Shown: one piece after another, positions 3,220-45,197 of the stretch
Layout: every line of letters begins with the position of its first letter
How positions within the stretch are numbered: the stretch's first letter is position 1
From: Nitrospinaceae bacterium
GTDB lineage: Bacteria > Nitrospinota > Nitrospinia > Nitrospinales > VA-1
NCBI GenBank assembly: GCA_016763735.1
Contig: JAESTE010000006.1
Coordinates: 778-64,777 of the forward strand
DNA: 64,000 nucleotides
Reading direction: 5' to 3'
Notes under the pieces: generated by a model
What the model was told of the DNA's origin: nothing
Database searches by the model: none
What the model saw: only the letters and a program-made list of their open reading frames with translations
Translations under genes and position numbers: made by a program

Positions 3220-6200
3220 ATGACAATTGGGAAGTCAATCGCCTCCGTGCACGCGGCGGTGTGCATCTGCTGGCTAAGTGTGCTACTGGGAATCCATCTA
3301 ACAGAAGGGTTCGAGATAATCTCGCAGGTGTCGAGCACAGAGGTGGTCAACGGCAATAGCCGCCTGGTGCATCGGGCCACCGTGCGGTGTACACAGGACG
3401 ACACCGGAACCCCCAACATCATAACCTTCCAAGACGCGAACAGCGGGACTGCACGTACCGTTACGTTCCTGTGCGAGCAGCCCTCGTACCGGTACGGGAA
3501 CTTTAAAACGGAGTATATACCAGAGGCCCAGTACCCGGTGATCTCCCGGGTGTGCCTGGTCCATGTGCACACCAACAACAGCGTTCTGAAGACAGACAGT
3601 GGGGGTGACGCGGACAATGGGGTGCAACAACCTCCGTTCCGTCGCCGTTTGCTGGGGACTGGGGGTGGGGATTACGACGACACGTTGCTCGACCCTGCAG
3701 TGGTACGCCCAGGGGCACGCCGGCTCTTGCTGTCCAACCAGGCCATCAACGGGATAGGGGTCCTCCTTCCTCGCGCAAAGGATCTGATCTGTACGTTCGG
3801 CGGGTGCCACAACGGCCTGCAAGACTTGAAGCAAGCCATGGCCATCATCCGGGCACGGCTAGACAAGATGACGGTCCAGTTCGGGACTATGACCACCGAG
3901 TTGGACAAGAACCGGTTGTTTGACCAAGACGTCTTGCGCCGCGACGAGATGACCGCTGACCAGATCGGGTTTATCCAGCAGGCGACTCTGCGGACACAGG
4001 GCGTGTTGTCTGGACTGAATGACGACATCGTGGATTTGGTCACGATCCAGGACGCATACGCCAATTCAACCAACCGTAACTTCGCTGCCCTGAAAGCACA
4101 GGTGTCCGCGAACGCCAATCTGAGCCGCACCGAGTGGAACGCCACGGTAAACTTCATGACGGAGACCACGCGTCGGTTCTACGAGATCGTGCATCGCATT
4201 GGAGGGGTGACGAGACAAGTCACGTCGATCGAAGTACTGCTGATGAGCATGTACAAGCAAGTGGAGATGCGGCGGTCTGTTATTTCACTGTTCCACGAGG
4301 TCTCAACGGTGGCAACGCCCATTGCAACCACGCCCTTCTTGGGGTATCTCGGGGAGGCGCCGTACACAGAAGCCCAGCTCAATGCTCTGGGCAATCGGAA
4401 CAGTGCCAGGCGTGTGGCCAGTGTATACTTGGAGCGTACGGTGCTGCGAGGAGGCACGGATTACTGGGCCCAATGGATCAACTTGACGTACGCCTGTGAC
4501 CCCAGGTATATCATCCAGAACATTGTACCGTTTCTGTCTGTCGAGGCCCTGTTCGGTTCGATTGGGCCGGGGGGGTGTTACAGTGGTTCTCCAGCGGCTC
4601 CGTGGACTTGCAATTGTGTCATCCTGGTGGAGACCGAGGAGTGCTTGGTCACGTCGCATCCGTCTCGGCGGTTTCCGTGGAGTTGGCCAGTCAACACGAC
4701 CTACCTCTTGCCCATGAACCCTGGGTCGTGCGGCTCCGGGGACGACTTGGTCCCGGGGTGCCAGAGCAAGTGCACATTGCCAATCGTGCATCGTGCCCCA
4801 CTCGTGCTGGACAACCGGGTTGGAGTGGAAGCGTACATGTCTGGCCTCTGTTCCGGGAGCGACGGGGACGTGGCGTTACCTGACGTCTCTGCCACCGCTA
4901 CTGTGCCCCCTGCCAAGGTCCGCATCTACTCCATGCTGTACGGTACCTACTCCGACTTGACATTGGACCCCGCGGTGGCCGGATCGGACGTGTGTTCGGG
5001 CGAGTTTGCTGTGGAACACCGGGCAGGACAGAACGAGGCGCTGTTCCTGGGGTACCACGTGTACTACATGTGGTTGCTCATGTACCAACGCGGAGTCAGC
5101 ACATGGATCCCCGAGGTCGAAGAACTGTTGATGGGCAAGGTCGCGTCCAACCTGTACTTCAGGGAGGTGCCATTCGACGTCGACGCCAAGTACCAGCAGA
5201 CCCACCGGTGTACTGAGTTCGCGTTCGCCAGGACCACGTCCACCAAGCTTCCGGTGTACGTTGACATCCTGAACAGTGTGCAGACCAGCATGCAGGTGAC
5301 GGTGGGAACCCAGTTGATCCAGGGCCCGCTCACTGCCTCGCCCGTGACGTCGTCGCATAGAATATCCATAGCGCTGAATGGGCTGACGTCGGGTGGGAAT
5401 GTTACAGTCACGACCGCCATCGACCTTAGCAACAATGTGGTCAACGTATTGCCGGGGTTGTTTCGGCGGGTGGGGCTATGGCGTGGCCCCACCAACTTGG
5501 AGTCTACATGGGACGTTCCAGGCGAGCAGCTGTGCCCTGGCGAGTTGCCACAGTCACGTGCCGCGTGTATGAACTACATATCCCAGGGCGCGAACTGGAC
5601 CGGCGTGACCGATTCATCGCCCATCACCATCGAGGAGTGGAAGTCCAATTACCACGCCTACTTCAATCCGCACAACCTGGGAGACAGTCCCAGTTCGTAC
5701 CGCAGGCAGTTGTTCACGTCCGGGACCCAGGCCACGTGCAGCGGTTCGTACGACATCGACGGAACCCCCATCGCCACCACCACGTCGGAGAACTTCTGGT
5801 GCGAGATCTTGCGCAACTACGACGTGAGCACGGTGGGCGCAGACCAGGAGGAGATGTGGTTCAAACCTCGAGCCTTTGCGTACACCACCACCGTGGAGGT
5901 TCCAGGCGGTTCGTTCATACAGAGGTTGACCAGCTTCTGCCCCAGTTCCTTGCGCGTCGTGGAGACAGCAGGGGACGTGCACGTGGAGCTGAACACCACC
6001 GTCCCCGAGCTTATAACCGTGCGGATCAAGGTGACCAGCCGGGACCTGCCCAGCGACCCGGCATGTGTGTTCCATGACCAAGACGATACTATGTCCATCA
6101 TCAAGCCCTTCAGACTGGATATCCCCTTCAGTGCATTGTGTAGTCCGTACATGCTGAACGTACGGCCGGTGGACAGTACTCAATGGTGTTATGGAGTCGA

Positions 6201-7155
6201 GGGGCGGGTCATCGACAGCAGCCACGTCATCGAAGACGGGTCCGGGGTGCCGGGCCCGGTACAGATCGCCATCTCCTACTCGGAGGACCGGGTGCTAGAC
6301 GACCTGTTGAACCAATTGGCCACGTCGGAGGCCTTCAGCTGGAACCTCACCCAACTGCAGTTCAGTACGTTGTCGGATCAGGACCTGGACGCACACATCA
6401 CCACCATGGAGACCGACCGAATCAATTCCATTGACAAAATGAAGCTGGGCACAGGAGCGTACGCCAAGATCATCGCCGCCGCCAAGGCCCGGATCGCCGC
6501 CAACGTAGCGGCAGCCCGCAAGGCCATTGCCAAGAGTCGCAGTGACATCACCCACTCGATTGGGCTGAACCTGGCGATCGCCAAGTTGGACCACAACATG
6601 TCCAGGGTGGTGGAGCAGCTGGTTGCCTTGGGGTTGCTGGGCGACGAAGAGCAGGCCAACGGGACGGTGCAAGAGAAGAGGCTGGACGCCATCATCCAGA
6701 GGTTCCTGGACTCTGGCAACCCACACAAGTGTGGCTTCCTGTCGTTCCTGTGCGACATCTTCCATTCACTGTTCGGTGGCATCTTCGGTGCACTGTTCGA
6801 CGGGATCAAGAACTTTATCTTTATGGTCATCATGCTGGTGCTGATGGTGTTCGTGGGCAAGATCATGTTCAAGAAGTGCATGAACCACCACAGCAGCGGC
6901 GGATCAGGAGGCGCCACAGGCGGACCAGTCATGAACTACACCCCTTGGTCGCCGCCACCGGCCACAGCCGCAGCCCCGCTCAGCACAGAACAGATCCATG
7001 GCCCGCCCAAGATCACTCGCGTGGACGGGACCGTGGAGGGCGATCCAGGGGAAGGCGCATCACTTCTCGCCAAGGATCCAACAGCTCCTGCTACCGGCGG
7101 GTTCATGGAGATGCTGCCCCTCCAAGACAGCGCTGACATTCACTTTGATTCTTAA
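3220..7155 (+). CDS. large type I envelope-like glycoprotein (possible fusion protein)
   Basis: Track ORF 3199..7155 begins with GTG. The first ATG is at 3220 (taccATGa). Signal-like SVHAAVCICWLSVLLGIHL. Large ectodomain with many N-x-S/T sites. Two long helical/heptad stretches at about aa 200-370 and 1040-1130. TM segment IKNFIFMVIMLVLMVFVGKIMF. Pro-rich cytoplasmic tail containing PTAP (7078-7089). Confidence 0.6.
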   Translation: MTIGKSIASVHAAVCICWLSVLLGIHLTEGFEIISQVSSTEVVNGNSRLVHRATVRCTQDDTGTPNIITFQDANSGTARTVTFLCEQPSYRYGNFKTEYIPEAQYPVISRVCLVHVHTNNSVLKTDSGGDADNGVQQPPFRRRLLGTGGGDYDDTLLDPAVVRPGARRLLLSNQAINGIGVLLPRAKDLICTFGGCHNGLQDLKQAMAIIRARLDKMTVQFGTMTTELDKNRLFDQDVLRRDEMTADQIGFIQQATLRTQGVLSGLNDDIVDLVTIQDAYANSTNRNFAALKAQVSANANLSRTEWNATVNFMTETTRRFYEIVHRIGGVTRQVTSIEVLLMSMYKQVEMRRSVISLFHEVSTVATPIATTPFLGYLGEAPYTEAQLNALGNRNSARRVASVYLERTVLRGGTDYWAQWINLTYACDPRYIIQNIVPFLSVEALFGSIGPGGCYSGSPAAPWTCNCVILVETEECLVTSHPSRRFPWSWPVNTTYLLPMNPGSCGSGDDLVPGCQSKCTLPIVHRAPLVLDNRVGVEAYMSGLCSGSDGDVALPDVSATATVPPAKVRIYSMLYGTYSDLTLDPAVAGSDVCSGEFAVEHRAGQNEALFLGYHVYYMWLLMYQRGVSTWIPEVEELLMGKVASNLYFREVPFDVDAKYQQTHRCTEFAFARTTSTKLPVYVDILNSVQTSMQVTVGTQLIQGPLTASPVTSSHRISIALNGLTSGGNVTVTTAIDLSNNVVNVLPGLFRRVGLWRGPTNLESTWDVPGEQLCPGELPQSRAACMNYISQGANWTGVTDSSPITIEEWKSNYHAYFNPHNLGDSPSSYRRQLFTSGTQATCSGSYDIDGTPIATTTSENFWCEILRNYDVSTVGADQEEMWFKPRAFAYTTTVEVPGGSFIQRLTSFCPSSLRVVETAGDVHVELNTTVPELITVRIKVTSRDLPSDPACVFHDQDDTMSIIKPFRLDIPFSALCSPYMLNVRPVDSTQWCYGVEGRVIDSSHVIEDGSGVPGPVQIAISYSEDRVLDDLLNQLATSEAFSWNLTQLQFSTLSDQDLDAHITTMETDRINSIDKMKLGTGAYAKIIAAAKARIAANVAAARKAIAKSRSDITHSIGLNLAIAKLDHNMSRVVEQLVALGLLGDEEQANGTVQEKRLDAIIQRFLDSGNPHKCGFLSFLCDIFHSLFGGIFGALFDGIKNFIFMVIMLVLMVFVGKIMFKKCMNHHSSGGSGGATGGPVMNYTPWSPPPATAAAPLSTEQIHGPPKITRVDGTVEGDPGEGASLLAKDPTAPATGGFMEMLPLQDSADIHFDS

Positions 7156-16482: not shown

Positions 16483-16586
16483 GGTGTGACTCGTCCGCAC
16501 AGACCCAATGAATCGCGTCGGTTGTATTTGGTAGTCGACTCGCCCGTGTTTAGGACGGCGGCACTTCTTTTGTAGCTCTGCCCAAC

Positions 16587-19648: not shown

Positions 19649-19687
19649 GGACGGTTGGAATTGTCCCCGAGAGGATCGGCACACAGA

Positions 19688-19722
19688 GTCGACCATCAAA
19701 GTCGACACCACACAGAGTCGAC
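19688..19722. promoter_or_regulatory. cluster of three GTCGAC(T) motifs upstream of the RING-like gene
   Basis: GTCGAC at 19688, 19701 and 19717. In gene sense this reads GTGTCGACTCTGTGTGGTGTCGACTTTGATGGTCGACTCTGTGTG, 40-75 nt upstream of ATG 19648. Confidence 0.5.
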
Positions 19723-20419: not shown

Positions 20420-20454
20420 GTCGACGCCCACACAAAGTCGACACCAAAGTCGAC
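20420..20454. promoter_or_regulatory. cluster of three GTCGAC(T) motifs upstream of the ankyrin gene
   Basis: GTCGAC at 20420, 20437 and 20449. In gene sense this reads GTGTCGACTTTGGTGTCGACTTTGTGTGGGCGTCGACTCACACAC. It forms a roughly 50-nt block about 90 percent identical to the block upstream of the next gene (21178-21250). Confidence 0.5.
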
Positions 20455-21206: not shown

Positions 21207-21323
21207 GTCGACACCCACACAAAGTCGACATCTGGGTCGACGTCGACTTGGGGGTCCACTCCACACTCCACCAAAGTCGACCAACATGTCGACTTACGAA
21301 GTCGACATCGAAGGCATGTCGAC
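21207..21323. promoter_or_regulatory. divergent promoter region with eight GTCGAC motifs
   Basis: GTCGAC at 21207, 21224, 21236, 21242, 21276, 21288, 21301 and 21318. The region lies between the minus-strand ATG at 21177 and the plus-strand ATG at 21286. The last three copies fall in the first codons of the plus-strand gene. Confidence 0.55.
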
Positions 21324-27320: not shown

Positions 27321-30300
27321 CTACTCACAGTCAGAGTCTGTGTCCGAGTCAATGTCGATGCCTTGTTCCTCAGTGTACAGACGGATCCTCTTGCGACTCT
27401 CGGAGTCGATCTTTACCGGCACAAAGGCCAGACGCCTCTTGACGGACCGCTCGGTGTACAACTTACGGCGGAGCTGCTGGTTCTCCTTGATGCGTTGTTG
27501 CTCACGATCCACCAAGGCATTGATCACAGTGTCAACGTTGTCCAGGCAGTTGTTGACGTAATCCTCGCGGTCCTTGCGCTCGGACAGGAGTCTGGCAAAC
27601 ATCGTCTGCTGTGCCTCGTCCACCCGCGTGTTGGCGATGTTGAGTTCCTCGACCACGGACACCATGTCTGACATGGCACCCAGCGCAGCACACTTGGGCA
27701 CCAACTCAGGGCACAGCTCGGTCACGACCACGTCCGGAGGCACCAGGTCGGTGAACTGCATCCGCGTGAGCTCGTCAAAGGTGATCTCCGTCACGATCCT
27801 CCCGTTGATGTGGAAGCGACACAGAGATGTAGGAGACAGGCCCAGGGCCACGCGCATGTTGGTGGCAAAGGCGTCGAACGTACCAATGGGGATGTAGCAC
27901 AGTCGCTTGTCCATCCTCCCCGCACAGGTCACAGTGATGGGGCGGATGCCAGCAGGGATCTTGTACAGGGGCACCACAACCACCTCATCGTCGTCTGCCA
28001 CCGTGTCGTCATCGTCCACACACTCTGCCTCGGCCACACTGACACTGTCGCTGTCGTACCCAGAGCCTTGAGCCTCCTGCTGGCTGGAGTGGTAGGAGCA
28101 GTCCGACTCGTGGTCGCTCTGGATCTCCACAGGGGAGGCAGGGGTGTCCGGCACAAAGTCGTCGTCACCGTCCAAGTCCTCCACATGGGTGATCTCCTCG
28201 TCTGTGTTGGAGGCAGGGCATGTGCGAAGACGACGCGACCTGCGCAAAGCACGCGGAGCCACAGACACCTCCTCGTCGTCACTGTCCTCCACGTCGCTGT
28301 CTGGGATCACGACGGATGCTCTGCGTGGTGAACGGCGCAGGGTAGGCACACGAGTAGGGAGAGGAGACGGTGCGCGCGACACGTCCGAGTCAGATGCCAC
28401 AGACATGTCCTCGTCTTCATCCTCCTCCTCCTCGCTCTTGTCGTCGTCAATGGAGCGATCCAAGTCCAGGTCTGCACCAGCCGGAGGAGACGTGAGGTCG
28501 TAGTCTTCGCAGGTCACGTGGGCCTTGGACAACATCTCCCGCACAGACGACTCGGGGCTGGAGGGGGAAGACGCCACAGCTGTACGCGCAGCCTTGACTG
28601 GGTACACCACAGGGTTGCTCATCTCGGTAGAGGCTTCACCCAGAGCACACGCCTTGCGCTTGGAGCAGACCGGAGTGCTGGCGGCACTGCTGGCGCTGGC
28701 GCTGGCAGACCCCACAGACGACACAGTGATGTCCTCGTCCTTGACAAAGAGCGACAAAACCTCGTGGAAGTCAGTGACGGGACGTACCCGCTCGGGGTGA
28801 TGAGCGATCGCATCCATGCACGTGTACTGCCCGTCCGCCACTTCACACAACAGAGGCGCCACGTCCGTGTTGGACATGGACTTCACCGTGGCAGGGCGTC
28901 GCTTGTAGCGCAGAGTCCCAGGGTTGCTGAACGGAACGATTGCACTCCATGCCTGCGTGCCCGCCCACACGTCTCCGACCCGATGGAGCACCCTGTGGTT
29001 GTGGCTCACCGCCATGTCCATCCCTCGCAAGGGCACACCCCACGAAGGCATACCGACCAGTTGGCGTTGAGTAGGCAGCTTCTTGTGTGCCTTCTTGTAT
29101 CCACCCTGCTCACGGTGACGAGAGGTACAGGTCTTCTTCTTGCCGTGCTCGGTGATCACCAGGCTCCGGGCCGTGCCCGCCACACGTTGAAGGCGCGGAG
29201 ACACCAGGAGACACGTACCCTGGTCGTCGCGCAGGAACGGCATGAGGTCTGCCTGGTGCACAGGAGACACGTCTGCCACCACACGCTTGTCCAGAGACGC
29301 GTAGGAGGTGTAGATGTCCATCACGCACAGCGTCAGGGCACGCATCATGTTGAGGTGCTTCATGGGTATCGGGCAGTACTTGCGGGGGACAATCACCTCC
29401 ACGTACTTGTGGCCAGAGATCCAGCCGCCTTGTGCAGAGGGAACACTGTAGGGGTCGCCTGCAGAAGGGGTGAAGGTCACGATCTGCTGCTTCCACCCGG
29501 GCACAGACACCAAGTTGGTGTTGGTCGTCACGTTGATGTAGTCGGTGTGACGACGCAGGTCATCCACGGTACGTTGAGGCCCGCCCTGGTTGCGGCGGCC
29601 CACAAGGATGGGCAGCACGGTCCAGCTGAGTAGGAAACATACCTCACGCAGGAGCTGTTCTTCGGGGAACATGGCGTGCCAGAACAAACGCTCGCCGTCC
29701 TCACGGGAGGCGAAGGGAGACGGGCTCCGGCCCATACGGGGTACGAAGGGCTCACTACACAAGACCACCACGTTGAGGGAGTCGGGGTAGAAGGCGCACA
29801 ACACCACATTGCAGTGGGTAGACACACCCACCGCCTTGAGTACCGCGATCTTGGTGGCCCAGACCCCCTCGTCAGCAGCATTGGCACACACCATGGCAGA
29901 CCAGTCGGGTCCTGCACGCAGTCGAGCCTTGATGTCGTACCCCAGACGAGCCCGAAGGACCCTGTCCTGAGGGCTGTTCACCCACACTTGGGCAACGCTG
30001 TGGTCCACCTTGGTCTCCACAGGCATGCACACAGGCACAGACTTGGGGGGGATGGACGCAGGCGAACCCAGGAAGGGGTTGACGTTGGGCTCGCGCAGCT
30101 GAGGCACAAGCATGGTGTCCTGGCTCGGGGGGTCGGACAGCAGCACCAGGGGAGTGCCCAGGGCGGGCCCATCCATGGCAGGGAAGGTGTATTCACCTAG
30201 ATCTTGGTCAAACACCGCGTCCAACAGGTTGTCGCCCATAGGAGTGGAGAGAATCCCTCCGTCAGACGGGTTCATCCCCGTAAAGTCCGCACCGATCAAG

Positions 30301-30403
30301 TCGTCCACCAAGTTACCAAATCCCTGCACACACATGAACAGTCAGCCACAGCTCCCTTTGCGTCGCGTCCAGAGCTCCTGGCACTCACCATAGCAAAAGA
30401 CAT
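27321..30403 (-). CDS. large acidic Ser/Asp-rich protein, family B paralog (spliced, two exons)
   Basis: Exon 1 is 30389-30403 (ATG TCT TTT GCT ATG). The intron is 30324-30388. Exon 2 is 27321-30323. The N-terminus (GFGNLVDDLIGADFTGMNP...PMGDNLLDAVFD), the VPVCMPVE motif and the C-terminus (IDIDSDTDSDCE) all match the 36378-37347 gene. Long acidic/Ser tracts. Confidence 0.65.
30324..30388 (-). other. 65-nt spliceosomal intron
   Basis: In minus sense the sequence reads ATGTCTTTTGCTATG|GTGAGTGCC...CATGTGTGTGCAG|GGATTTGG. Both junctions are in phase 0. The intron is at the same position as the intron in the paralog at 36381-36447. Confidence 0.65.
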
Positions 30404-30449
30404 AGTTTCGGGGTTTGGGATATTTCGGATATTTCGGGATTTACTGAAA

Positions 30450-30806
30450 ATTTGGACTTTGACTTTTGGAATTATGAACCAAAAGCCAAGTCGTCGACCA
30501 CCAAGTCGACTCAAGAATGGGAAAATTTGGACGACCACCGGAATATATCAGGATGGCCAAAATTTGGACGACCCTCCCCGATCATCCTCTTGGCCATTTT
30601 TTTGACACCACACCAAAAAGTCACAAAGAGGTGGAAAACACCGGACACAACCAGTTGAACTTTTTGTTTTCTTGGGTGGGGTGCACTTCAAACTTTTGAG
30701 AATCTTGATAAATTCCGGTGGTCGTCCAAATTTTGTCAATCCTGAGTCGACTTGGTGGTCTTCGACTTGAACTTTTCGTCACAATTCCAAAAGTCAAAGT
30801 CCAAAA
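30450..30806. repeat. imperfect inverted repeat (103-bp arms) forming a mirror-symmetric divergent promoter
   Basis: Left arm 30450-30552 and right arm 30704-30806 are reverse complements at roughly 80 percent identity by eye. Each arm carries GAGTCGACTTGGTGGTC and AATTCCAAAAGTCAAAGTCCAAA. The region is locally AT-rich. A third copy of AAAATTTGGACGACC lies in the spacer. Confidence 0.75.
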
Positions 30807-30831
30807 ATACTTCAAGTCTAAAAAGTTCACC

Positions 30832-32669
30832 ATGAAGCGAGCAGCCGAAGAGATGGGTGCGGTGCACAACGAACGTGTGCGCAAGGCGGTGTGCCCCAAC
30901 GAACTCCATGACGACGTCGCAGGGATCGCGAGTCGTTCCTTGAACACCTTCAAGGTTACGTTGGTTCGAGCCCCCCGTGAAATCGACTCCATCCACATGA
31001 CGGCCCGGGAGTACTACATCAACGCAGAGTTTGCGAGTTTGGTACGCAGAGGGGACATCTACAGGAACGAAGACTGGGAGAGCCTGGGCGGATCCACGGT
31101 ACGTCGCTCGGTACGTCTTTGTGTGCAGCCTTCTGTGTAGAGGGACACGCACTGACACACGACACTTGTATGCATACACAGACCACGTTGTCCGACGTGT
31201 TCACCCCTGGTCTACCAACTGGAGGCATGTGTGACCCGGACATGGCTGGAATACAGACCCTCATCAACCCCTCCACGACCTTCACGTACAGGTCCCGCGC
31301 AGTGAACCGGTACGCTAACCTCACCCACGCCTTCCCTCCTGTGGCCACCCGCCCAGGCTTCAACTTGTATGCGTCCTACACCCCGCCGACTGCGGCCCAT
31401 CCACGTCTCACCCACACCCGCCTGGACCTGCACTGGCTGCGCATGGACGTGAGCGACTTCCTGTCACGCGCTGTGTTCGACACCGACGACACGTACACCT
31501 CGTACAACGTGGCGGTCAATGCCATCACGGTGGGGATCTACAAGGCGTGTCTGGCCCGTGTCGCTTCCAGTATGCACTGCCGGGGAGACCTGAACAAGTT
31601 GCTACGGGATGACGCAGATGGCATATCGGTCTTTGCCCACGCCCTTCTGCCCGCGGTGTGTCTGCCTGGCATGGATGTCGACGTCAACACAGACGTCATC
31701 ACGGTCCGTGAACCCCTGACCTCACTTGAATCCTTCTCGTTTGTCTTCGGGCCACCCAAGGATGACGACCCCTCCATGTTGCCTGGCATGCGCAAGAGGT
31801 ACACCGTCCCCCGGATCCGCCACATGGTCACACACATTGCGCTAGGCAGATGCCACGACCTGGAGGAGGTGTACACGTACATGTGCCAAGGGAAGGGCAC
31901 CCCCACCATTGCCTTGGCCACGCCCAGCTCGGCGACCGGTCCCCTGGGCGACCAGTCCAGTACAGTGATCATTGACATGCTGTTCGCCAACACTCAACTG
32001 CACGAGATGGGGTTGATCACCACGGCTGACCTGTGCCCCCACGACCCAGGCGTGGTCTTCATAGACTGTCGACTGTCCTATGCGTCTGTCGGCCTCGTTG
32101 ACTACGTGCTCTACGTCAAGTACGTCACCATCAAAGGCATATGCTTTGACCAAGGCACTCAGTGTATCCTGATGACCGTGTCCATGGACCTGGCAGCGGT
32201 GGCGTTCGAGCGGAAAGGGCAGCACATCCAACTACACGACGAAGTGTACGACAGGGTCGTCTACCGTGACACCCTCGTTACCGTGAACGTGACCTACGTC
32301 CTCAACCGACGGGTGCCGGTACACACGTCCATGGCCACCGACTGCCGCCGGTACAAGCAACACGAGTTGGGTCACCACAAGACTCTCTTTGCGTGGAAGC
32401 AGTATGGCTTGTCCATCAAAACACACGACCTGCCCTTCCCTCCCTACAACAACCCAGGCATGGTCACGAGTCGGTTCGAGACCGAGGTCCGGGATTTTGT
32501 GACCTGTGACGGCGGAGGCATGGGCTGGTTCATTGTACGCTCTGTGGCCCACCGCATTGGGACACAGAACTTGTTGGAGAGTTCCATGGACCAAGTCACT
32601 GACCCGCACACACGCAAAACACACACCTTCCCCGCTGACATCCACAACCTTATCCTGTCGTACGTGTAG
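30832..32669 (+). CDS. family A protein, paralog 1 (spliced, two exons)
   Basis: Exon 1 is 30832-31098 (ttcaccATGa). The intron is 31099-31181, with an alternative donor at 31111. Exon 2 is 31182-32669. It shares TADLCPHDPG and the C-terminal FPADIHNLILSYV motif with the genes at 40829-42748 and 42832-44310. Confidence 0.6.
31099..31181 (+). other. 83-nt (or 71-nt) spliceosomal intron
   Basis: ACG|GTACGTCGCTCG|GTACGTC...TGCATACACAG|ACC. Both tandem GTACGT donors (31099 and 31111) keep the frame. The acceptor at 31181 joins the frame of track ORF 30718..31140 to that of ORF 31119..32669. Confidence 0.55.
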
Positions 32670-32766
32670 TTTTAACGCGAATACACTGTTCCCTTCGTAG
32701 TTGGAATCATTGCTTCTGTAAGTAGTTGTATTTGAGTCCGTGCTGTATCTCCCTGTGCACGTAGCC

Positions 32767-33744
32767 ATGGCCTTCAGCACGTCCAATGACATGACAGGCG
32801 GCTACCCGTTCGGCGGCTTGGCCAGCGGTCCGCCCGGCCCTACCCAGGGCCATGTGTTCCCTTCCATGCCCAGTGCCAGCGGGGTGCCCTCTGAGAACTC
32901 CATGGAAACAGACGACATCGGACAGCAGCACAACCTGGGACGGCTGCGGGTGGCACACACCTACAACGTCATCCTCAACAAGAAGAATGCGTACCCTGCC
33001 ACCGAAGACATGGGCCCCAACCAGTTGGTGTTCTGCTACCGCCACAAGACCTGTGACAAGTTCACCCCGGGCTTTACCCAGTTCAGGTCCGTGTCCGCCA
33101 TGAACAAGTACATGATCTCTTCGCAAGGCCGCCGCCACTACGGCAACGCCAAGTTCGCGTCGGTCGTCATGGAGGACTGGGCCTTCCTGGGGTGCCAACA
33201 AACCGACACCAACCGCTACACCAACCAGATGGACGCCGCCGTCACGGTGCATGTGGCCCATCGATGCCGCACACCCAACATCTGGCTGATCAACGGCAAC
33301 GTGGGACAAGGCGACCTGTTGTGGCTGCTGCTGCGACGCAAGGAGTTCGCCTCCGACACCCAGTCGGGACTGGACAGCATGCGAATCAACTCCATGACCG
33401 GGGTGCAAGAAGGCAAGCAACGCGAGGTCAAGAGTCAGAACAGCTACGCGGCCGTGGCCATGGGTGTGGCACAGCCGGCAACCCCTACACCCGACCTCTA
33501 TTGGGTGTACGAGCCCTTTGTCACCCGAAAGAACGAAGCCCCGCCCCATCAGCTGCTGGGATCAGTGGGCGAGGGTTGGTTCGGCGCACCCTTGTTGGTG
33601 GGCACAGCCTCCGACCTCTACGGACAGCCCGACCCTAGCCGCTACCGGGCCGCGGCCCTACAGGCCGTCTTCCCCAAGTCCAAGTCCTTCAAGGAACCCC
33701 TCTACCGTTTGCCCGAAGTCGAGGTCATGCTAGGGGTCAAGTGA
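32767..33744 (+). CDS. hypothetical protein (325 aa)
   Basis: The track ORF starts with GTG at 32740. The first ATG is at 32767 in gtagccATGg. The composition looks globular and beta-rich. No motif recognised. Confidence 0.6.
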   Translation: MAFSTSNDMTGGYPFGGLASGPPGPTQGHVFPSMPSASGVPSENSMETDDIGQQHNLGRLRVAHTYNVILNKKNAYPATEDMGPNQLVFCYRHKTCDKFTPGFTQFRSVSAMNKYMISSQGRRHYGNAKFASVVMEDWAFLGCQQTDTNRYTNQMDAAVTVHVAHRCRTPNIWLINGNVGQGDLLWLLLRRKEFASDTQSGLDSMRINSMTGVQEGKQREVKSQNSYAAVAMGVAQPATPTPDLYWVYEPFVTRKNEAPPHQLLGSVGEGWFGAPLLVGTASDLYGQPDPSRYRAAALQAVFPKSKSFKEPLYRLPEVEVMLGVK

Positions 33745-33755
33745 TGTACATTCAT

Positions 33756-36377: not shown

Positions 36378-37347
36378 ATGGTACGGAACATGCCAGATCC
36401 TACACCAGCGAGAGACATGTGATCCCCTCTGCCGTCCTCTGTTACAGGAATCCAGAGACTTTCTGGACAACATGCGTGTGTGGGATTTCAGCCCGTTGAA
36501 CCCGGTAGGGGATGAATGGGCGATGGAGTTTCCGATGGGGGACACGCTCTTCGACCAAGTTCAGGACATGCACACCTACCCCCTCCCTGGCGACGACAAC
36601 CTGGTCGATCTCCTGGTCGCCGATGATGGCCGTGGACAGGTGGCAGCGTTAACAGCGCCCCTTGCCGCAACGTCAACCCGGCGCATAGTATCGCCGCTGT
36701 ATGCGCCCCCGGACCCGTGTGCAACTGTGCCTGCGTGCATGCCTGTGGCCAAGATCTTCCCACAGCCTCCATCCGTGTCGCCGCGCGCCATCCAGCCCGG
36801 GGGGGGCTGCGACCTGAAGGTGTCCCCTGAAGCGTCTCTGGACACCGATGCGTCCACGCTCCCGCGTCCTGTGCGTCGTTCATCCAGGCTTCTCGCGTCG
36901 CGCATTGTGCGTGAATTGGCCGGCACTGAGTCAGACATGGTGGTGGTGGACGACATCGACGCAGACGACGACGACTTCGTGCCCGAAGAGGACAAGTGCT
37001 TGACCAACACCCCCTCCATGGAGGTGGTAGTGGAGCCCCACGAGACCGTGGCCGCGGGCGACGGGCTGCTCGACACGCGGCTGGACGACATGTACCGGTC
37101 TGTGTTCCGCCAGTTCAGCACCGAGCATAAGGCGCAGGCCGGCCTCGTGGATCGATGCCTGGAATTCCTGGCACTGAGCGATTTCGAGGCTCGGTGCCAG
37201 ATGGAAGAGCGTGCTCCGCAACCCCAGCCACAGACCGACTTCGCGGCCCGGTGCCTAGTCGAGTATCGTGCTCCGCAGCCCCCGCGGGTGCGGATGCGTA
37301 CGGAGGCAGACGACATAGAGATCGACACTGACACCGAGTCTGAGTAG
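36378..37347 (+). CDS. acidic protein, family B paralog (spliced; first coding exon is only ATG)
   Basis: Exon 1 is 36378-36380 (cgaccATG|GTACGG). The intron is 36381-36447 (...CTCTGTTACAG|GAA). Exon 2 is 36448-37347. The 8 codons upstream of the track ATG (36472) are open and homologous to the paralog: ESRDFLDNMRVWDFSPLNP versus GFGNLVDDLIGADFTGMNP. Confidence 0.55.
36381..36447 (+). other. 67-nt spliceosomal intron
   Basis: GTACGG donor directly after an ATG. Polypyrimidine-rich CCTCTGCCGTCCTCTGTTACAG acceptor. The junction lies exactly 19 residues before the conserved NP, as in the paralog. Confidence 0.55.
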
Positions 37348-37370: not shown

Positions 37371-37380
37371 TTAGATCTAA
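37371..37380. terminator. 10-bp palindrome at a convergent gene junction
   Basis: TTAGATCTAA overlaps the stop (37377-37379) of the minus-strand zinc-finger gene, 24 nt after the plus-strand stop. The function is inferred only. Confidence 0.2.
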
Positions 37381-38574
37381 TACAAGTCTGCAGCGGCTGG
37401 GTCGGCCCGAAATCGCTTTTGCGCGCGCTGGATGATTTCCTTTGCCATCTCGCCTACACACTCACGTATTCCGTGCATGGCCTGCTCGTCGTGAGTGGCT
37501 TGTGTTCGGAGCAGGGCGTCGCGTGTCCTTTCCAGAACCTTCCGTTGACGGTCGTTCTCGTCGAGGTCTCCTAGAACGACCTTTAGATCGTCCTCGACGC
37601 GCTTCCGGGCTTTGTGCATTTTGGGAACCATCGTTGCACGATACCGCTGGTACGCCAGCTCCTCGAACGTATCCATTGCACTGCGTGTCTTGCTTGCCAA
37701 GGGAGGCGTCCGCACGTTGGGAGTTGCAGCGGATGTCTTGGGGTTGCTGGACGAAGAGGATGCAGAGGCCGGTGCCTTGGGACCGCTGGGCACAGGGGGC
37801 GCGACGGCTGCTGCTGCGGCGTGCTCCCGTACCTTGATGGTTGGTATATCCTGGGTGAGGTTGACCACGTGCGCCTTCATATGTTCGGTGGCGGGCGCCC
37901 GGGATGCAGCCTCAGGTACCGCGGCTGGCGCGGGGTCCTTCTCGTCCTGGTCGTCCTCGCTCCTGTTCTGGTCGTCGTCTTCGCCTCGGCTGCGGACAAA
38001 TGCACGGTTGTCTTCGGTGTCGTCTTCGGTATGTTCGTCGCTGTCTCCTTCGCTGTCTTCGTCCTCCTCGTCCTCCTCGTCGTCGTAGTCGTCGCTGTCT
38101 GTGCGCCCAGACACTGACCGTGCCGTGACACGTTCACCTCCATCTTTGCAATGGTTGCAGCGTTGCTTCTCGTATCGCAGTCCACGCAGATAGCGCACAT
38201 CGCTCGCGCACCTGCACATCAAACCATGTCATGCACGGCTCACTGCGCGCCACACAAGCAGCAACTCACTTGGCGCAAACGACCACGCGACACTCGACAC
38301 ACATCCGGCCGTTCACAGCCAGTAGGTCCTGGCCTGACCACACAAGTTTTGTGCAACACACGACACAGTCGAGCAGCCAGCCTCTGTCCACCCGCGGAGG
38401 ACACGCGTTGCGCACTTTCAAGCATTCCTGTACGCAAAGATCACCACACCTGATGACATGCACACCTCCACACCGCGCATCCACCTGGCAAATCGAGATC
38501 CCCGGGACACCGGGCAGTTTGTGGTGGGTGGTGAGCGGGTGCGCACCTTGGGTGCGGCAGACCGCACAAGTCAT
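37377..38574 (-). CDS. cysteine-rich zinc-finger / acidic coiled-coil protein (spliced, two exons)
   Basis: Exon 1 is 38270-38574 (true ATG, MTCAVCR...). The intron is 38212-38269. Exon 2 is 37377-38211. The splice joins AA|G so that ...CVECRVVVCA-K-CASDVRYL...CNHC reads through. CxxC pairs lie on both sides of the junction. There is an acidic tract and a C-terminal helical region. Confidence 0.6.
38212..38269 (-). other. 58-nt spliceosomal intron
   Basis: In minus sense the sequence reads GCGCCAA|GTGAGTTGC...TTTGATGTGCAG|GTGCGCG. The donor removes the TGA that ends track ORF 38266..38574. The phase-2 junction fits the frame of ORF 37377..38222 exactly. Confidence 0.6.
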
Positions 38575-39286: not shown

Positions 39287-40120
39287 ATGCCTTCACCTCT
39301 TACCATTGCATCCACCATGGGTTCGTGTGACAGCTGCCTCGTGGACGACGCGGTACGGGTGGAGCGGGTGCAGGGCAAATCCAATGAGCTGTTGGGCAAC
39401 ACCTTGAAGGTGCAGCAACGCACCCTGGAGGCGGCACTTGGGACCTTGCAGAAGACCGAACTGGCCGTGAAGCGCCTGCGGATCAAGGCCAGAGAGTTGA
39501 ACAAGGGCCCCACCCAGTCGATGAAGGTGGCGATGCAGCGCGAACTGGTCAAACGTAGGCAAGCAGACCGGGCGGTGAAGGCCAGCCAGGCCAACATCTC
39601 CCGCACCCACGGCATGATGAACATGGTCACCAAGCTCGGGGACGCCCATACCACAGCGCAACTGCAGAAGGACTTGCAGAAGAACTTCAAGAAACTCAAG
39701 CTGGACCCAGAGAGGTTAGAGAAGTTGATGGAGACCGGGGGCGACATCAACGACAGCATCGAGGAGGTGGCCAGCATTGCAGACCAGTTCACGGGCGGAG
39801 ACAACGTGGACGCCGAGGTGGAAGAAGAGATGGAGAGCATCTGGAACATGGACGGCGACGACGAGTTGTCCACCAACGAAGAGGTGAACTACGACCTGAG
39901 CAAGACTATGCCCGACGGACCCTTGGAGGATCTGGAGGAAGAGGAGAACGGGACGGGGATGTCACACCTGGGCAAGCGAGGACTCGTCAAGAACCCCAGC
40001 ATCAAGGAACAGGTGCATATAGGCCAAGGGTACCGCCAGCTGAGCCACGCCGAGCAGTTGCTGAACCAAACCACCAATCTGGAAGACGTCAACTTGAAGG
40101 TTTTGGTCAACACCGAATGA
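39287..40120 (+). CDS. ESCRT-III (Snf7 family, CHMP2/Vps2-like) protein
   Basis: By-eye alignment to human CHMP2A. LKVQQRTLEAALGTL aligns with LRQNQRALNRAMREL. AMQRELVKRRQ aligns with IMAKDLVRTRR. ASQANISRTHG aligns with LMRANIQAVSL. KKLKLDPERLEKLME aligns with RQLKLPQIQKIMME. An acidic helix DAEVEEEMESIW follows. An alternative start at 39317 (caccATGg) gives MGSCDS, an N-myristoylation consensus. Confidence 0.65.
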   Translation: MPSPLTIASTMGSCDSCLVDDAVRVERVQGKSNELLGNTLKVQQRTLEAALGTLQKTELAVKRLRIKARELNKGPTQSMKVAMQRELVKRRQADRAVKASQANISRTHGMMNMVTKLGDAHTTAQLQKDLQKNFKKLKLDPERLEKLMETGGDINDSIEEVASIADQFTGGDNVDAEVEEEMESIWNMDGDDELSTNEEVNYDLSKTMPDGPLEDLEEEENGTGMSHLGKRGLVKNPSIKEQVHIGQGYRQLSHAEQLLNQTTNLEDVNLKVLVNTE

Positions 40121-40828: not shown

Positions 40829-42748
40829 TTAGTTCACGTAACTTTGCACCAGATCACACAACACACTGGGCAGACGACGGTTGTGAAACAGCGCCTGACG
40901 CGTGACCTGTGCGGCCGACATGCCTGCGGCGGTAGTGGTAAGGGCCATCCAAGGCAGGGTGTGTGCCTGGGCACAGAACGCCCGCACAGTCTCCGAGCAC
41001 ACGCATATGACGCGCGCCTCACTTCGTGTGTCGTCAACCTCCAGGTCTGGAGAGAACACACACTTCACCGGTCGTTCGTGATAAGACGGGGCGGTGTACC
41101 AAGTGAAACAGTCCTTCTTGTCGCGCGGCTGGTACACGGTCAACGTGAGCTCTCCTCCCCCTGGGTTGCGGGAGTAGACGTCTCCCGCCAGCGACCAAGG
41201 CAGGTCGTACACGGCAACGTGTGTGCACCGTACGGTACCTCCTGGATTGGCGTAATTGCTGTCTGGGCCGATGACAAAGTCCACCACAAGTTCCAGTGTC
41301 AGGGTCATGGACATGATACAGGGGTCGTACGCCAGAAGCAGCACCCTCAGCGAGTGCAGATGGATCAACGTACTGCATCCCGCCACGAGTCCGTCAGGGT
41401 AGCCGACCGGAGCCAGGTCCATCATGTCGGGGTCGAGGGACACGGGGCCCGGGTCGCGCGGGCACAGGTCGGCGGTGTTGATCAAGGGAAACGCACTGTC
41501 TTCCTGGTGCAGTATGTCGTATATGAGTAGCGCCGCGCGTACCCGGTTTGTGTGACCTCTGAACCCGGGCCGGGCCTTTTCAGACTCGAAGAATACCGGG
41601 GGAGGCAGTCGGTCGTGGTCTTCGCAGAAATGTGCGTACACTTGCTTGAGGGCAGTGACGCGCTGGTTGGCGATGCGGGCCAGGGAATGGGGGATGACAG
41701 GGGCCAGGGTGCGATGGAAACGACGAAGTACACACTCCAGTGCACACTCGTCACCAAACAACACGAACTCGGCGGCGTGCTCCACGCCGAGCAGCTCCGA
41801 GAAGGTCCATGGGACGAGGTCCACGGACCGTGGCAAGAATACGGGAGGCAGCGCGAACAACTCCTCTGCGGCAAACGTCGAGCACGCCTTGTGGAATTGG
41901 ACGTGGTAGTTGGCGAGGGGGTCGAAGTACACGACACTCCTCCCGCCGTTGCCCACGGACAGGCGGCACCCCAACTTGACCATGTCGTGGTACAGTCCCA
42001 CGGTCATCATGCGAGACAACATGGACATCATCGCGGTAGGTTCGGAACACTGGAACGCAGACACTAGTGATGTGACGTCGGCACTGTACCAGTCGAGGTC
42101 CCGCTCGGTAAAGGTTGTGAGGGGCAGGGGAAGGGTGTGGATGGAGCCGACCAGCACAGGAGCCTGTCCATGCAGAGAACGACGCGAGAGGTGCATGAGG
42201 TCGTTCCCGGCCAGGTTAGACGCGGACGCGTTTGGGGCACGGTAATTATGGTCGAGTTTGTCGAGTCGACCCCAGTACGTGTCCATGGACAGCGAGGAAA
42301 TGCCGTCGGGGCGTCGTCGTGTCCGACCTTGAGCCTTCCATTCACGAGACCCTTCCACGCCTGTGGTGAACAGCCCGCCGCAACGCACAGGGGATGCCAT
42401 GAAGTCGCGTACATCGCCGAGAATGGTTACTTGGGCTGTGCTGGCACGTCCGGGTAAACAAAGCACCATGATCTTGGCACGCTGACGTGCGTCCAGGCAC
42501 CCGAAGTCGACAGGGGCCTGGTCGATGAGGTACTGGACAGTGGGGGTGATGGCGTACGTTTGGCGGAGCCCTCGGGTCCCGCCCACGGGGTCCAGGTCGG
42601 CGAAGGACATACGTGACGGGGCATGACGCTTGGGCTGTATCTCGGGAGGCATACGAGACGACGCGGCCTGGCTGCGATGAGGCGGAGTGTAGGGCAGGAC
42701 CTTGCGCTTGCGCGTGGAGAGGTCATCAGGGTCCATGGCACTTGACAT
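40829..42748 (-). CDS. family A protein, paralog 2
   Basis: The track ORF runs to 42997 across the promoter motifs and the neighbouring gene's 3' end. The ATG at 42748 gives MSSAMDPDD. It shares TADLCPRDPG, IPHSLARIANQRVTALKQVY and the C-terminal LPSVLCDLVQSYVN with its paralogs. Confidence 0.6.
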   Translation of the reverse strand: MSSAMDPDDLSTRKRKVLPYTPPHRSQAASSRMPPEIQPKRHAPSRMSFADLDPVGGTRGLRQTYAITPTVQYLIDQAPVDFGCLDARQRAKIMVLCLPGRASTAQVTILGDVRDFMASPVRCGGLFTTGVEGSREWKAQGRTRRRPDGISSLSMDTYWGRLDKLDHNYRAPNASASNLAGNDLMHLSRRSLHGQAPVLVGSIHTLPLPLTTFTERDLDWYSADVTSLVSAFQCSEPTAMMSMLSRMMTVGLYHDMVKLGCRLSVGNGGRSVVYFDPLANYHVQFHKACSTFAAEELFALPPVFLPRSVDLVPWTFSELLGVEHAAEFVLFGDECALECVLRRFHRTLAPVIPHSLARIANQRVTALKQVYAHFCEDHDRLPPPVFFESEKARPGFRGHTNRVRAALLIYDILHQEDSAFPLINTADLCPRDPGPVSLDPDMMDLAPVGYPDGLVAGCSTLIHLHSLRVLLLAYDPCIMSMTLTLELVVDFVIGPDSNYANPGGTVRCTHVAVYDLPWSLAGDVYSRNPGGGELTLTVYQPRDKKDCFTWYTAPSYHERPVKCVFSPDLEVDDTRSEARVICVCSETVRAFCAQAHTLPWMALTTTAAGMSAAQVTRQALFHNRRLPSVLCDLVQSYVN

Positions 42749-42786
42749 TGTGTGGCAGAGTTGGTTCAGGGAATCGACGGAGAAAT

Positions 42787-42808
42787 GTCGACACCCAACT
42801 GAGTCGAC
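42787..42808. promoter_or_regulatory. two GTCGAC motifs upstream of family A paralog 2
   Basis: GTCGAC at 42787 and 42803. In gene sense this reads AAATGTCGACTCAGTTGGGTGTCGACATTTC, 40-60 nt upstream of ATG 42748. Confidence 0.45.
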
Positions 42809-42831
42809 ATTTGTGGAAACTAGTCGGAGGT

Positions 42832-44310
42832 TTAATACAAATAATCTGTCACAACCTCTGACAGGGCACGGGGGAACGCAGCCCGGCGCTCCAACATGGC
42901 GCGGGTCCCGGCCACGAACCGGTGCTGATGGGCCAGTTTGCGCACCACGTACCAGGGTAGGTCCTTGATCTGGGTGACCATCTGTCCCGCGGCACACTCC
43001 AAGGTGGCTATGTATATATCAGAATCGTGTACGCCTCGGACCTTGCCCTGAAAGCCCGTGGCGAGCGATCTGGTTGTATGTTCGCTCCAGTGCAGCGCGT
43101 GTGCGTGATGGACGGCATGGGTGGGGCGGTGGAGGGTGTACTCTGCGATGACGTCCACAATACGCGCTTCGGACGGAGGCTTCATCTGCTTAGGCGAGTC
43201 CACCGCAAGGGGGTAGATGAGTGTCGTCAGGCCGAGACGCATGGTCAGGATCCCGTGGCCGGCGTGATAGTCCAGGCTGAGGAGGGCAATGTCACGGACC
43301 CAAGTCCGGTAGACGGGGGTGGTGCAGGTCATGCAGCAGGACATGTGGAGAGGGCACACGTCGGCTGAGGTCGCGGCGTTCACCACCCGTTCCACATCTC
43401 CTGGTCCCAGACCACGCAGTGCCTCGGACAAATAGTCAAACTGGCGTCCGTACCTCCAGCTGCCGCCCCAGCTGCCGTCCGGTACAGTAACTTTGCATGA
43501 CTGGGGGTTCTCGTGAGGGGTGTCCATACGCAGGGTTGAGGCGGGGGCAGGGTCATAGGTAATGTGGAACGAATCGTACAACTCCTTCAGGTCGGCGACG
43601 CGTTCGTGTGCGATGGTGATGGCCATATTCCATAGGGCCGGGACGATGATCGTGCGCAGCGCGTTGTCGAGAGGTTCGGCAGCTGCGACGCTCCTCCCTT
43701 GCGTGAAGTCTTCGGCTTCGCGGCGACTCAATTTGCACGGAATACCACGTGGTTTCACACAGTCCAGAGTATCGGGTGGAGGCGGGTAAGAGAGATGGTA
43801 TGCGTCAAAGGGGACGTGTGCCCACCCGCCTCCACCCGTGCAGGGATCTTTACCGCGTGCAACCCATTGTTGGCTGAGTCCCAACGCCATCATGCGTACG
43901 GTGCTCTTGAAGACAATACTGTAGGAGTGCAGGTCGCGGTTCCTCTGGGGGGACACAAGGAAGGTCCAGTCGAGCAACGTCTTGTCTATCCAACGCAGAT
44001 CCTTAGAGGTTCGGGTGGACTCGGGCATGGTGTGAGTGGTACGAAAGGGGAGTACGACCACGTCCATCAGCTGACGAGCGGCCGCGTGCTGTGTCAGGCG
44101 TGAAATCTTGAGGTCGGCCTCGAGGAACACCGTGGAGTAGCCAATGGTAGGGACAATGTTCAGAAGAAACGGTTCCTCGTTGCGTCGGGCGGCGGACTTG
44201 GTCTCGTCCATCAACCTCTGGCGGGAGTGCCGGGTCGTTTCCAAGTATTCAGAGGTCGTGGCCATCCTGGGGCGTTTCACTGGAGTCGACGACGAGGCAG
44301 CAGCAGACAT
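42832..44310 (-). CDS. family A protein, paralog 3
   Basis: The track ORF starts with TTG at 44328; the first ATG is at 44310. It shares SADVCPLH, VPALWNMAITIAHERVADLKELY and the C-terminal FPRALSEVVTDYLY with its paralogs. ATTAAA (42831-42836, minus sense) overlaps the TAA stop. Confidence 0.6.
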   Translation of the reverse strand: MSAAASSSTPVKRPRMATTSEYLETTRHSRQRLMDETKSAARRNEEPFLLNIVPTIGYSTVFLEADLKISRLTQHAAARQLMDVVVLPFRTTHTMPESTRTSKDLRWIDKTLLDWTFLVSPQRNRDLHSYSIVFKSTVRMMALGLSQQWVARGKDPCTGGGGWAHVPFDAYHLSYPPPPDTLDCVKPRGIPCKLSRREAEDFTQGRSVAAAEPLDNALRTIIVPALWNMAITIAHERVADLKELYDSFHITYDPAPASTLRMDTPHENPQSCKVTVPDGSWGGSWRYGRQFDYLSEALRGLGPGDVERVVNAATSADVCPLHMSCCMTCTTPVYRTWVRDIALLSLDYHAGHGILTMRLGLTTLIYPLAVDSPKQMKPPSEARIVDVIAEYTLHRPTHAVHHAHALHWSEHTTRSLATGFQGKVRGVHDSDIYIATLECAAGQMVTQIKDLPWYVVRKLAHQHRFVAGTRAMLERRAAFPRALSEVVTDYLY

Positions 44311-44312
44311 GA

Positions 44313-44403
44313 GTCGACAGCAGGTCAAGTGAACGTTTGGGATAATTTTACATAAAACATCGACTCAAGTCGACACCCGAGTCGACTCCTAACACAAGTC
44401 GAC
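44313..44403. promoter_or_regulatory. cluster of four GTCGAC motifs upstream of family A paralog 3
   Basis: GTCGAC at 44313, 44369, 44381 and 44398, with a fifth at 44285 inside the coding start. In gene sense this reads AATGTCGACTTGTGTTAGGAGTCGACTCGGGTGTCGACTTGAGTCGATG. Confidence 0.5.
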
Positions 44404-45192: not shown

Positions 45193-45197
45193 TTAAT
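45192..45197 (-). terminator. ATTAAA hexamer bridging a stop codon and the next start codon
   Basis: In minus sense the sequence reads TGATTAAATG. TGA is the stop of the nuclease gene (45199-45197), ATTAAA is 45197-45192, and ATG starts the next gene (45192-45190). The poly(A)-signal role is inferred. Confidence 0.35.

Follow-up and report, generated by a model that had tools for sequence, protein, structure and literature searches.

Candidate introns at the 5′ ends of two paralogous genes in a marine virus-like contig filed as a bacterium

The stretch of DNA analysed here, which we call the window, comprises 64,000 nucleotides of contig JAESTE010000006.1 (positions 778 to 64,777) from assembly GCA_016763735.1, filed under the name Nitrospinaceae bacterium. 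It carries about 38 densely packed open reading frames (ORFs) on both strands, among which two, genes A and B, are paralogous and share an arrangement at their 5′ ends in which an upstream ATG directly abuts a short gap that starts with GT and ends with AG. The original prediction for this DNA, made from its letters, held that these gaps are spliceosomal introns at a conserved position and that the transcripts are consequently processed in a nucleus. Here we describe the two start regions, the rival readings of them, and the kind of genome to which they belong.

Start regions of genes A and B

The minus strand of gene A reads gaaactATGTCTTTTGCTATG/GTGAGTGCC...GGCTGACTGTTCATGTGTGTGCAG/GGATTTGGTAAC around the proposed exon, gap and exon (slashes mark the boundaries; coordinates are in Table 1). 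The first coding exon contains two in-frame ATGs, the second of which lies directly against the donor (GCT ATG/GTGAGT), and the ATG at 30335 that the ORF finder takes as the start of the gene falls inside the proposed intron. The donor matches GTRAGT at 6/6 positions (26 such hexamers occur in 128 kb, both strands), and a branch-type motif, CTGAC, places its A at −19 from a CAG acceptor. Removing 65 nt (2 mod 3) brings the upstream ATG, which does not share the frame of the ORF, into register with it, giving a predicted spliced product of 1005 aa that is acidic and Ser-rich, with basic runs resembling nuclear localization signals (NLS). Left unspliced, the upstream ATG opens a 35-codon out-of-frame upstream ORF (uORF) that runs across ATG 30335.

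Gene B, on the plus strand, reads cacgaccATG/GTACGGAAC...CCCCTCTGCCGTCCTCTGTTACAG/GAATCCAGAGAC. Its upstream ATG is likewise out of frame with the ORF, removal of 67 nt (1 mod 3) restores the frame, and exon 2 has a codon log-odds score of 0.33 per codon in the proposed frame. The acceptor is again CAG, and the tract before it, with 13/17 pyrimidines, ranks among the richest 2.3% for YAG sites. If the RNA is left unspliced, translation from the upstream ATG enters a 14-codon out-of-frame uORF ending 50 nt before ATG 36472, the start of the ORF. The original prediction had placed a 15-nt first coding exon, a GTGAGT donor and a 65-nt intron in gene A, and a 67-nt intron at 36381-36447 in a paralog at 36378-37347; every coordinate and letter agrees with what we find.

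Genes A and B are paralogous at both ends, with BLASTP E values of 4e-5 at the N-terminus and 7e-6 at the C-terminus, and their products share an acidic N-terminal motif; among the ORFs of the window, the combination of DF..NP and PMGD is present in these two only. In both proteins 19 residues separate the junction from NP, with an ungapped alignment between them, as had been stated for the DF...NP motif. The junctions follow one pattern, ATG/GT...AG/G in phase 0, to which only gene A adds a further in-frame ATG 12 nt upstream. That the last codon of exon 1 in gene A should also be ATG would be an independent coincidence of about 1/64.

The positions of putative promoter elements also bear on where the transcripts begin. 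A box of the AAAATTT type precedes each proposed start, at a distance of 50 nt for gene A (AAAATTT, start at 30403) and of 47 nt for gene B (AAAATTTA, start at 36378); there are just 33 A/T runs of at least 7 in 64 kb. Gene A and the divergently oriented gene D are moreover preceded by the two arms of an inverted repeat, which gives the two genes a promoter block of 115 nt in common. Past this block the first ATG on the side of gene A is 30403, which by analogy with gene D would be the first AUG of the gene A mRNA. The repeat contains AAAATTTGGACGACC repeats and GAGTCGACTTGGTGGTC.

Table 1. Coordinates of the features discussed, numbered from the first letter of the window
Feature	Position	Strand	Description
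Gene A, proposed coding exon 1	30389..30403	-	ATGTCTTTTGCTATG = MSFAM, 15 nt
Gene A, proposed GT-AG intron	30324..30388	-	65 nt, phase 0; GTGAGT...CTGAC...TGTGTGCAG/gg
Gene A, exon 2 including stop	27321..30323	-	starts at a codon boundary of the 1004-codon ORF 27321..30335
Gene B, coding part of exon 1	36378..36380	+	ATG alone, context gACCATGg
Gene B, proposed GT-AG intron	36381..36447	+	67 nt, phase 0; atg/GTACGG...pyrimidine tract...TGTTACAG/ga
Gene B, exon 2 including stop	36448..37347	+	in frame with ORF 36472..37347; spliced product 300 aa
Gene A promoter block, inverted-repeat arm	30451..30568		118 nt, 83%; ends 48 nt before ATG 30403
Gene D promoter block, other inverted-repeat arm	30688..30805		ends 27 nt before ATG 30832
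Candidate intron C	38212..38269	-	58 nt, phase 2; caa/GTGAGT...ATGAC...GATGTGCAG/gt
Candidate intron D	31099..31181	+	83 nt (71 nt from the second GTACGT, 31111); acg/GTACGT...CTGAC...ATACACAG/ac
Candidate intron U, 5′ untranslated region	32718..32764	+	47 nt; tct/GTAAGT...GCACGTAG/cc, just before ATG 32767
PriL-like gene	21286-23076	+	eukaryote-type DNA primase large subunit; Cys residues of the Fe-S domain kept
Histone-like ORF	50973-51692	-	C-terminal 90 residues H4-like, after an acidic N-terminal extension

Chance, further candidates and rival readings of the gaps

To ask how often such an arrangement arises by accident, we defined a strict version of it: an in-frame ATG exon, a GTRAGT donor and a YAG acceptor, at 45-120 nt. 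It is present at 3/36 gene starts, compared with 1.0% when all 1846 ATGs of the window are taken, and one of the three is probably a promoter motif. Markov-shuffled upstream regions predict 0.9 genes with the strict arrangement, for which P(≥3) = 0.08. The shuffle predicts about three times too many GTRAGT hexamers, however, and for that reason we prefer the empirical ATG control, on which the significance rests. For a YAG at one fixed position, p = 0.026. The number of GTRAGT hexamers in the window (26 against 71 expected, both strands) might be taken for selection against cryptic donors, a reading we discarded since the control permutation TGARTG is equally depleted (38 against 86 expected); the biases in GTRAGT, TGARTG and GTACG[TG] are compositional quirks with no relation to splicing as far as tested.

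Further intron candidates, similar in length and signals to those of A and B, are present in the window. Candidate C would join a 102-codon ORF (ATG 38574) to ORF 37377..38211 with a junction inside a Cys-rich stretch; the codon score of its exon 1 is ambiguous, the branch-type motif is ATGAC only, and no Pfam domain was found to span the junction. Candidate D, in which CTGAC has its A at −27, would join exon 1 at 30832..31098 to 31182..32669, and that exon has a codon score of 0.389 per codon, equal to the in-frame coding mean; it is possible that there are two separate genes here instead. Homology of this exon to paralog E across the junction proved unusable, as a second high-scoring segment pair (E 0.07) conflicts with the main one. 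Candidate U precedes a start codon and so stands outside reading-frame logic. Upstream ATGs are sparse in the non-coding stretches before other genes (0.73 per 100 nt, against 1.46 per 100 nt genome-wide), and before the ORF-finder start there are 2 in gene A, 3 in gene B and 2 in C, more than in other genes. Among combinations that we rejected, donors at 55679 and 55686 are without an in-frame acceptor, and the joining of ORFs 42832..44364 and 40829..43018 into one spliced gene is ruled out by a GTCGAC cluster and an ATG at 42748 between them.

Two other gaps of this type lie on L005, one of the metagenomic contigs related to the window through its primase-like (PriL) gene and a distant relative. 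In L005-L008 a frameshift interrupts the PriL gene at a (CT)n tract, which varies in length among assemblies (P0007, P0018, L005) and in most of these disrupts the reading frame. An 86-nt gap in L005 (9906..9991), tgg/GTATTG...(CT)n...CAACAG/gcg, contains this tract, and its removal excises the tract and brings the conserved VPFE/Fe-S domain of PriL into frame for any n; only then is the domain in frame. On the minus strand of the same contig (15550..15470), an 81-nt GTGAGT...TGTGTGTTTAG gap with a TTTAG end and two stops joins frames of 891 and 811 codons. Together with the candidates in the window, these gaps make short GT-AG introns a plausible trait of the lineage.

The most serious alternative is that neither gene is spliced: translation would begin at ATG 30335 and ATG 36472, on mRNAs that start downstream or tolerate the uORFs, and the GT...AG boundaries would be coincidences recognised after the fact. 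We think this unlikely, and nonetheless several observations that weigh against splicing speak for it. Both ORFs are complete as they stand, their in-frame ATGs lie close to the proposed acceptors, and their unspliced products are plausible proteins. The splice signals are uneven as well. The gene B donor, GTACGG, matches GTRAGT at 4/6 positions and carries little weight because GTACG[TG] is among the commonest hexamers here (113 in the window against 54 expected, about twofold over-represented); no strict YTNAY branch motif was found upstream of the gene B acceptor; and the gene A acceptor, with 9/17 pyrimidines, is average among YAG sites and has no pyrimidine tract. The shuffle P of 0.08 for three genes and the roughly 1% of arbitrary ATGs that show the strict arrangement fall on the same side. 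It had also been argued that homologous coding sequence (ESRDFLDN) lies upstream of ATG 36472; in-frame sequence is indeed present there, and to call it homologous overstates the case, as ESRDFLDN against GNLVDDLI gives one identity, the only one upstream of M9 in gene B, and three conservative pairs. Homologs of A or B turned up in no other genome, with IMG/VR, GTDB genomes and JGI metagenomes among the places searched for gene A, so the conservation of intron position concerns two sequences in one genome. Finally, an independent Tara Oceans assembly that covers genes A and D and candidate U is identical to the window across all three gaps, with two single-nucleotide polymorphisms (SNPs) that are both in the coding exon of gene A, and thus it provides no test from polymorphism.

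Against the absence of splicing stand the coincidences that it would jointly require, namely a junction that the paralogs share in alignment and in phase, ATG/GT at both exon 1 ends, a perfect GTGAGT together with CTGAC in gene A, and a pyrimidine tract in the top 2% at the homologous codon in gene B. The AAAATTT-type boxes lie 47-50 nt before the upstream ATGs and not before the ORF ATGs, the promoter block of A and D puts 30403 first, the out-of-frame uORF from there overlaps ATG 30335, and there are intron candidates elsewhere in the lineage. On balance we are inclined to regard the gaps in A and B as real introns, while allowing considerable room for doubt. To this extent the original prediction of real spliceosomal introns holds up as the best explanation; its description of the conserved position as strong evidence goes too far, given how common the gene B donor is, that the unspliced ORFs are readable, and that the homology proposed upstream of ATG 36472 comes to one identity.

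A further alternative is that splicing occurs in another form than the one drawn here, with the intron of gene A alone being real, or with the gene B acceptor at 36447 served by a more distant donor or leader exon, or with regulated retention that yields spliced as well as unspliced forms. The signals of gene A are much stronger than the donor of gene B, the acceptor is the strong half of the gene B signal, and other donors exist upstream, such as a GTGAGT at 36119. Judging from the coordinates, however, this last donor is in phase 1 and would be out of frame with the acceptor before 36448, and ATG/GT in the good Kozak context at 36378 is the simplest in-frame solution; we consider a departure of this kind from the drawn introns improbable.

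Nature of the contig

The spliced product of gene A has a sole match among 5.8 billion proteins, which is itself: P0001 (JKY23_00380), entered as 'MAG: hypothetical protein [Nitrospinaceae bacterium]', where MAG stands for metagenome-assembled genome, on a contig of 65,708 nt. GenBank locus tags JKY23_00280, 00340 and 00380 are all on the contig carrying this label, and the prokaryotic gene calls truncate or split genes, with 992 rather than 1005 aa for A and 195 rather than 596 aa for the PriL-like protein. Bacterial gene content, sought as tRNAs and as NCBIfam and Pfam housekeeping families, was not found in the window: there is no tRNA or Rfam family, no NCBIfam match in the 10 ORFs scanned, and the significant Pfam matches are EGF/teneurin and ankyrin only, with PriL below threshold.

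Two genes point instead to a eukaryotic setting. Searched against the PDB, the family profile of the PriL-like gene finds the large subunits of eukaryotic primases with an E value of 7e-17, and an exhaustive HMMER search with this ORF recovered ten metagenomic relatives. A word-indexed protein search with the PriL alignment returned the window's own protein only. The family marks a small set of orphan metagenomic virus-like contigs (L002-L010), of which L002 (GC content 0.50) has seven genes in common with the window, L009 (GC 0.64) four and L005 two. The second is the histone-like ORF, whose domain finds nearly all of its best PDB matches in histone H4 (residues 16-98), with alignments that span almost the full length, at E values of 0.03-0.4 that are weak and consistent. 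L002 carries a homolog of this ORF, and the gene next downstream is the same in both.

Some window proteins recur without any change in two Tara Oceans assemblies and one Logan assembly (TULL18-1_SAMN07571245, SAMN07571238 and Logan run SRR5988111). The corresponding contigs match window positions 28752-34292 (L012, with the two SNPs noted above), 48615-49996 (L011) and 32007-34292 (L013) at 99.9-100% identity, and the same virus is thus a real and recurrent marine population of very low diversity. The window is not bacterial. It represents a rare virus-like lineage of the sea, or an element descended from such a lineage, and its place in a bacterial MAG is a binning error. That it should be a Nitrospinaceae chromosome fragment, in which spliceosomal introns would be impossible, has as its sole support the source label of P0001, P0002 and P0004, and the chance of it is negligible in the face of the lack of tRNA, Rfam and NCBIfam matches, the two significant Pfam families, the eukaryote-type PriL and H4-like fold, domain-less ORFs of 2759 and 2150 aa, and relatives that are all orphan metagenomic contigs of like make-up.

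Searches of the window with Pfam, PHROGs and motifs brought up no recognisable capsid-module gene (HK97 major capsid protein (MCP), triplex 1/2, portal, terminase, protease or jelly-roll), and the virion module may lie outside the window. Pfam matches to the nucleocytovirus core genes (double jelly-roll MCP, A32 ATPase, VLTF3, D5, PolB and RNA polymerase) were likewise not found among nearly all of the ORFs of the window, nor were TBP and heliorhodopsin seen there. A fish alloherpesvirus such as CyHV-3, suggested by the GC content of 0.6 and the giant ORFs, was dropped as a candidate after no homologs were found.

Several of the remaining genes encode large, Cys-rich proteins with transmembrane (TM) anchors that are putative envelope glycoproteins (7-3159, 3220-7155, 7152-8258 and 23025-24746), one of them with EGF/teneurin repeats. 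In the 1311-aa product of 3220..7155 the TM anchor is preceded by a heptad region. Its one relative, P0003, is 31% identical and adjoins a histone gene on L001. The Cys-rich composition and C-terminal anchor of the 1311-aa protein rule it out as a major capsid protein. No relatives of the glycoprotein were found in IMG/VR, GTDB genomes or JGI metagenomes. The giant ORFs, at 8320-16599 (minus strand, 2759 aa) and 56307-62759 (minus strand, 2150 aa), are without a significant Pfam domain or a match in the related contigs fetched. The most conserved protein of the lineage, encoded at 48939-49727 (plus strand), is 58% identical to its counterpart on L002 and has a weak GIY-YIG signature. ORF 18440-19696 (minus strand) is weakly RING-like, and ORF 19750-20385 (minus strand) has ankyrin repeats (E 7.5e-6). 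A FEN1/XPG assignment for 45197-46813 (minus strand) was set aside, as it amounts to motif likeness (MGI..., GEAD, SIDSD, CGTDY) with no Pfam or PDB profile match, and so was a Snf7 assignment for 39287..40120, which has no Pfam or PDB sequence match and for which an AlphaFold2 (AF2) model with pLDDT 57 found nothing in Foldseek. The AF2 model of ORF 32767..33744 is unusable at pLDDT 29, and single-sequence models were generally too poor.

The window also contains candidate regulatory motifs. The palindrome GTCGAC, usually in the form [AG]AGTCGAC[AT], occurs 61 times against 31 expected and clusters in intergenic positions upstream of genes (19688-19717, 20420-20449, 21207-21318, 30493-30505, 30746, 42787-42803, 44369-44398 and 52800-52908); it probably serves one class of genes as a promoter or regulatory element, and it differs from the motif of the medusavirus-like palindromic promoter, which is thereby ruled out. 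Some GT[AG]AGTCGAC copies resemble splice donors, and the donor at 52904 upstream of gene 53052 was rejected as probably part of such a promoter-motif cluster, like those at 21297 and 20416. Of the A[AT]TAAA hexamers in the window, 5/12 overlap a stop codon on the same strand (3155, 20468, 34820, 42836 and 45197), and two of these five either form TAAATG with the ATG of the next gene or lie no more than 9 nt from that ATG. Poly(A) signalling is one possible role for the stop-overlapping hexamers, and a start element of the TAAAT type is another.

A model of expression and its relation to known intron-bearing viruses

The explanation that we favour overall, and hold to be moderately probable, is that the contig is a mis-binned piece of a eukaryotic virus whose genes A and B inherited an intron from their common ancestor that is spliced by the host. 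The window would come from the genome of a large, uncultivated DNA virus of eukaryotes in marine plankton, or from a virus-derived element, and genes A and B would be transcribed by host-type nuclear machinery from an AAAATTT-box promoter about 50 nt upstream of the first AUG. In both genes this AUG would lie at the very end of a short exon 1 (ATG/GT), and the host major spliceosome would remove the 65- or 67-nt U2-type GT-AG intron and fuse the main ORF in phase 0 to the AUG. As the first AUG of the unspliced mRNA opens an out-of-frame uORF, which in gene A overlaps the start of the ORF, unspliced RNA would be poorly translated and splicing would be needed for efficient translation. The A and B proteins, being acidic with NLS-like basic runs, may act as nuclear regulators. 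Nuclear processing of the mRNAs follows only if the introns are real.

If they are real, the introns would be direct sequence evidence that the virus depends on the host nucleus and spliceosome, and the intron-bearing nuclear viruses of marine protists, a group recognised only recently, would gain a rare lineage of which hardly anything has been sampled. The ATG/GT first exon in two diverged paralogs would also illustrate neatly how an intron can be passed on when a viral gene is duplicated. Since prokaryotic gene callers mis-start its genes and the contig was filed as a bacterium, such viruses can stay hidden inside bacterial MAGs. The pattern of an intron-bearing nuclear virus has already been described for other protist viruses, and the present case would appear to work likewise. 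A more far-reaching proposal, which we regard as speculative and rather doubtful, is that the contig and its few relatives L001-L010 represent marine protist viruses that replicate in the nucleus and belong to none of the orders so far described in Mirusviricota and Nucleocytoviricota. This lineage would be marked by a eukaryote-type PriL of its own, an H4-like histone, a palindromic GTCGAC promoter element, and a small set of host-spliced 5′-proximal introns that, by way of the ATG/GT exon, make the translation of early regulatory paralogs conditional on splicing.

Spliceosomal introns are established in some chloroviruses and herpesviruses, and the spliced genes of herpesviruses include regulatory and early genes, with many spliced genes in fish alloherpesviruses. 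The window is like herpesviruses in having the marks of a nuclear large DNA virus, with acidic regulatory-type proteins, short 5′-proximal introns as candidates, paralogous families, large membrane glycoproteins and giant ORFs. It is unlike them in that no terminase, MCP or protease hallmark was found in the window, and herpesviruses are not known to encode PriL or histone-fold proteins. The Ariadnavirales (the SmDNAV group), which are without histones and introns, were ruled out as relatives.

In the Pandoraviridae, introns are present in 7.5-13% of genes, in both untranslated regions and coding sequence (Legendre et al. 2018; PMC5995976). The window shares with these viruses a GC-rich and ORFan-rich large DNA genome, about one short intron (here a candidate) per affected gene, candidates in the 5′ untranslated region as well, and the reading of introns as a sign of host nuclear transcription and processing. 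It differs in that no nucleocytovirus core gene was detected by Pfam, that searches showed no protein similarity to pandoraviruses, and that its introns are proposed from sequence, whereas those of pandoraviruses were validated by RNA-seq (PMC5995976).

The closest parallel is with the intron-containing mirusviruses of the Okeanovirales and Styxvirales, whose GT-AG introns have a length peak near 80 nt, with branch motifs CTGAC/CYSAC, and whose marine genomes encode histones, reach 13-14% Pfam annotation and span 25-72% GC (Medvedeva et al. 2025; PMC12768974). The introns of these viruses are concentrated in morphogenesis genes, and their nuclear expression was deduced from the introns (PMC12768974). 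The window differs in the low density of its candidates (4-5 in 64 kb), which lie at the 5′ ends of non-structural ORFans, in the absence of any recognised virion-module gene from its 64 kb, and in its eukaryote-type PriL, which does not appear in those tables of that paper that were available to us (PMC12768974). It is also, like them, a marine, uncultivated, large double-stranded DNA virus contig with GT-AG candidates (58-83 nt here), a CTGAC/CYSAC-type motif in A and D, a GC content within the reported range, very low Pfam annotation, a putative histone-fold gene and Cys-rich, weakly RING-like proteins. In lifestyle the virus would appear to resemble the nuclear mirusviruses.

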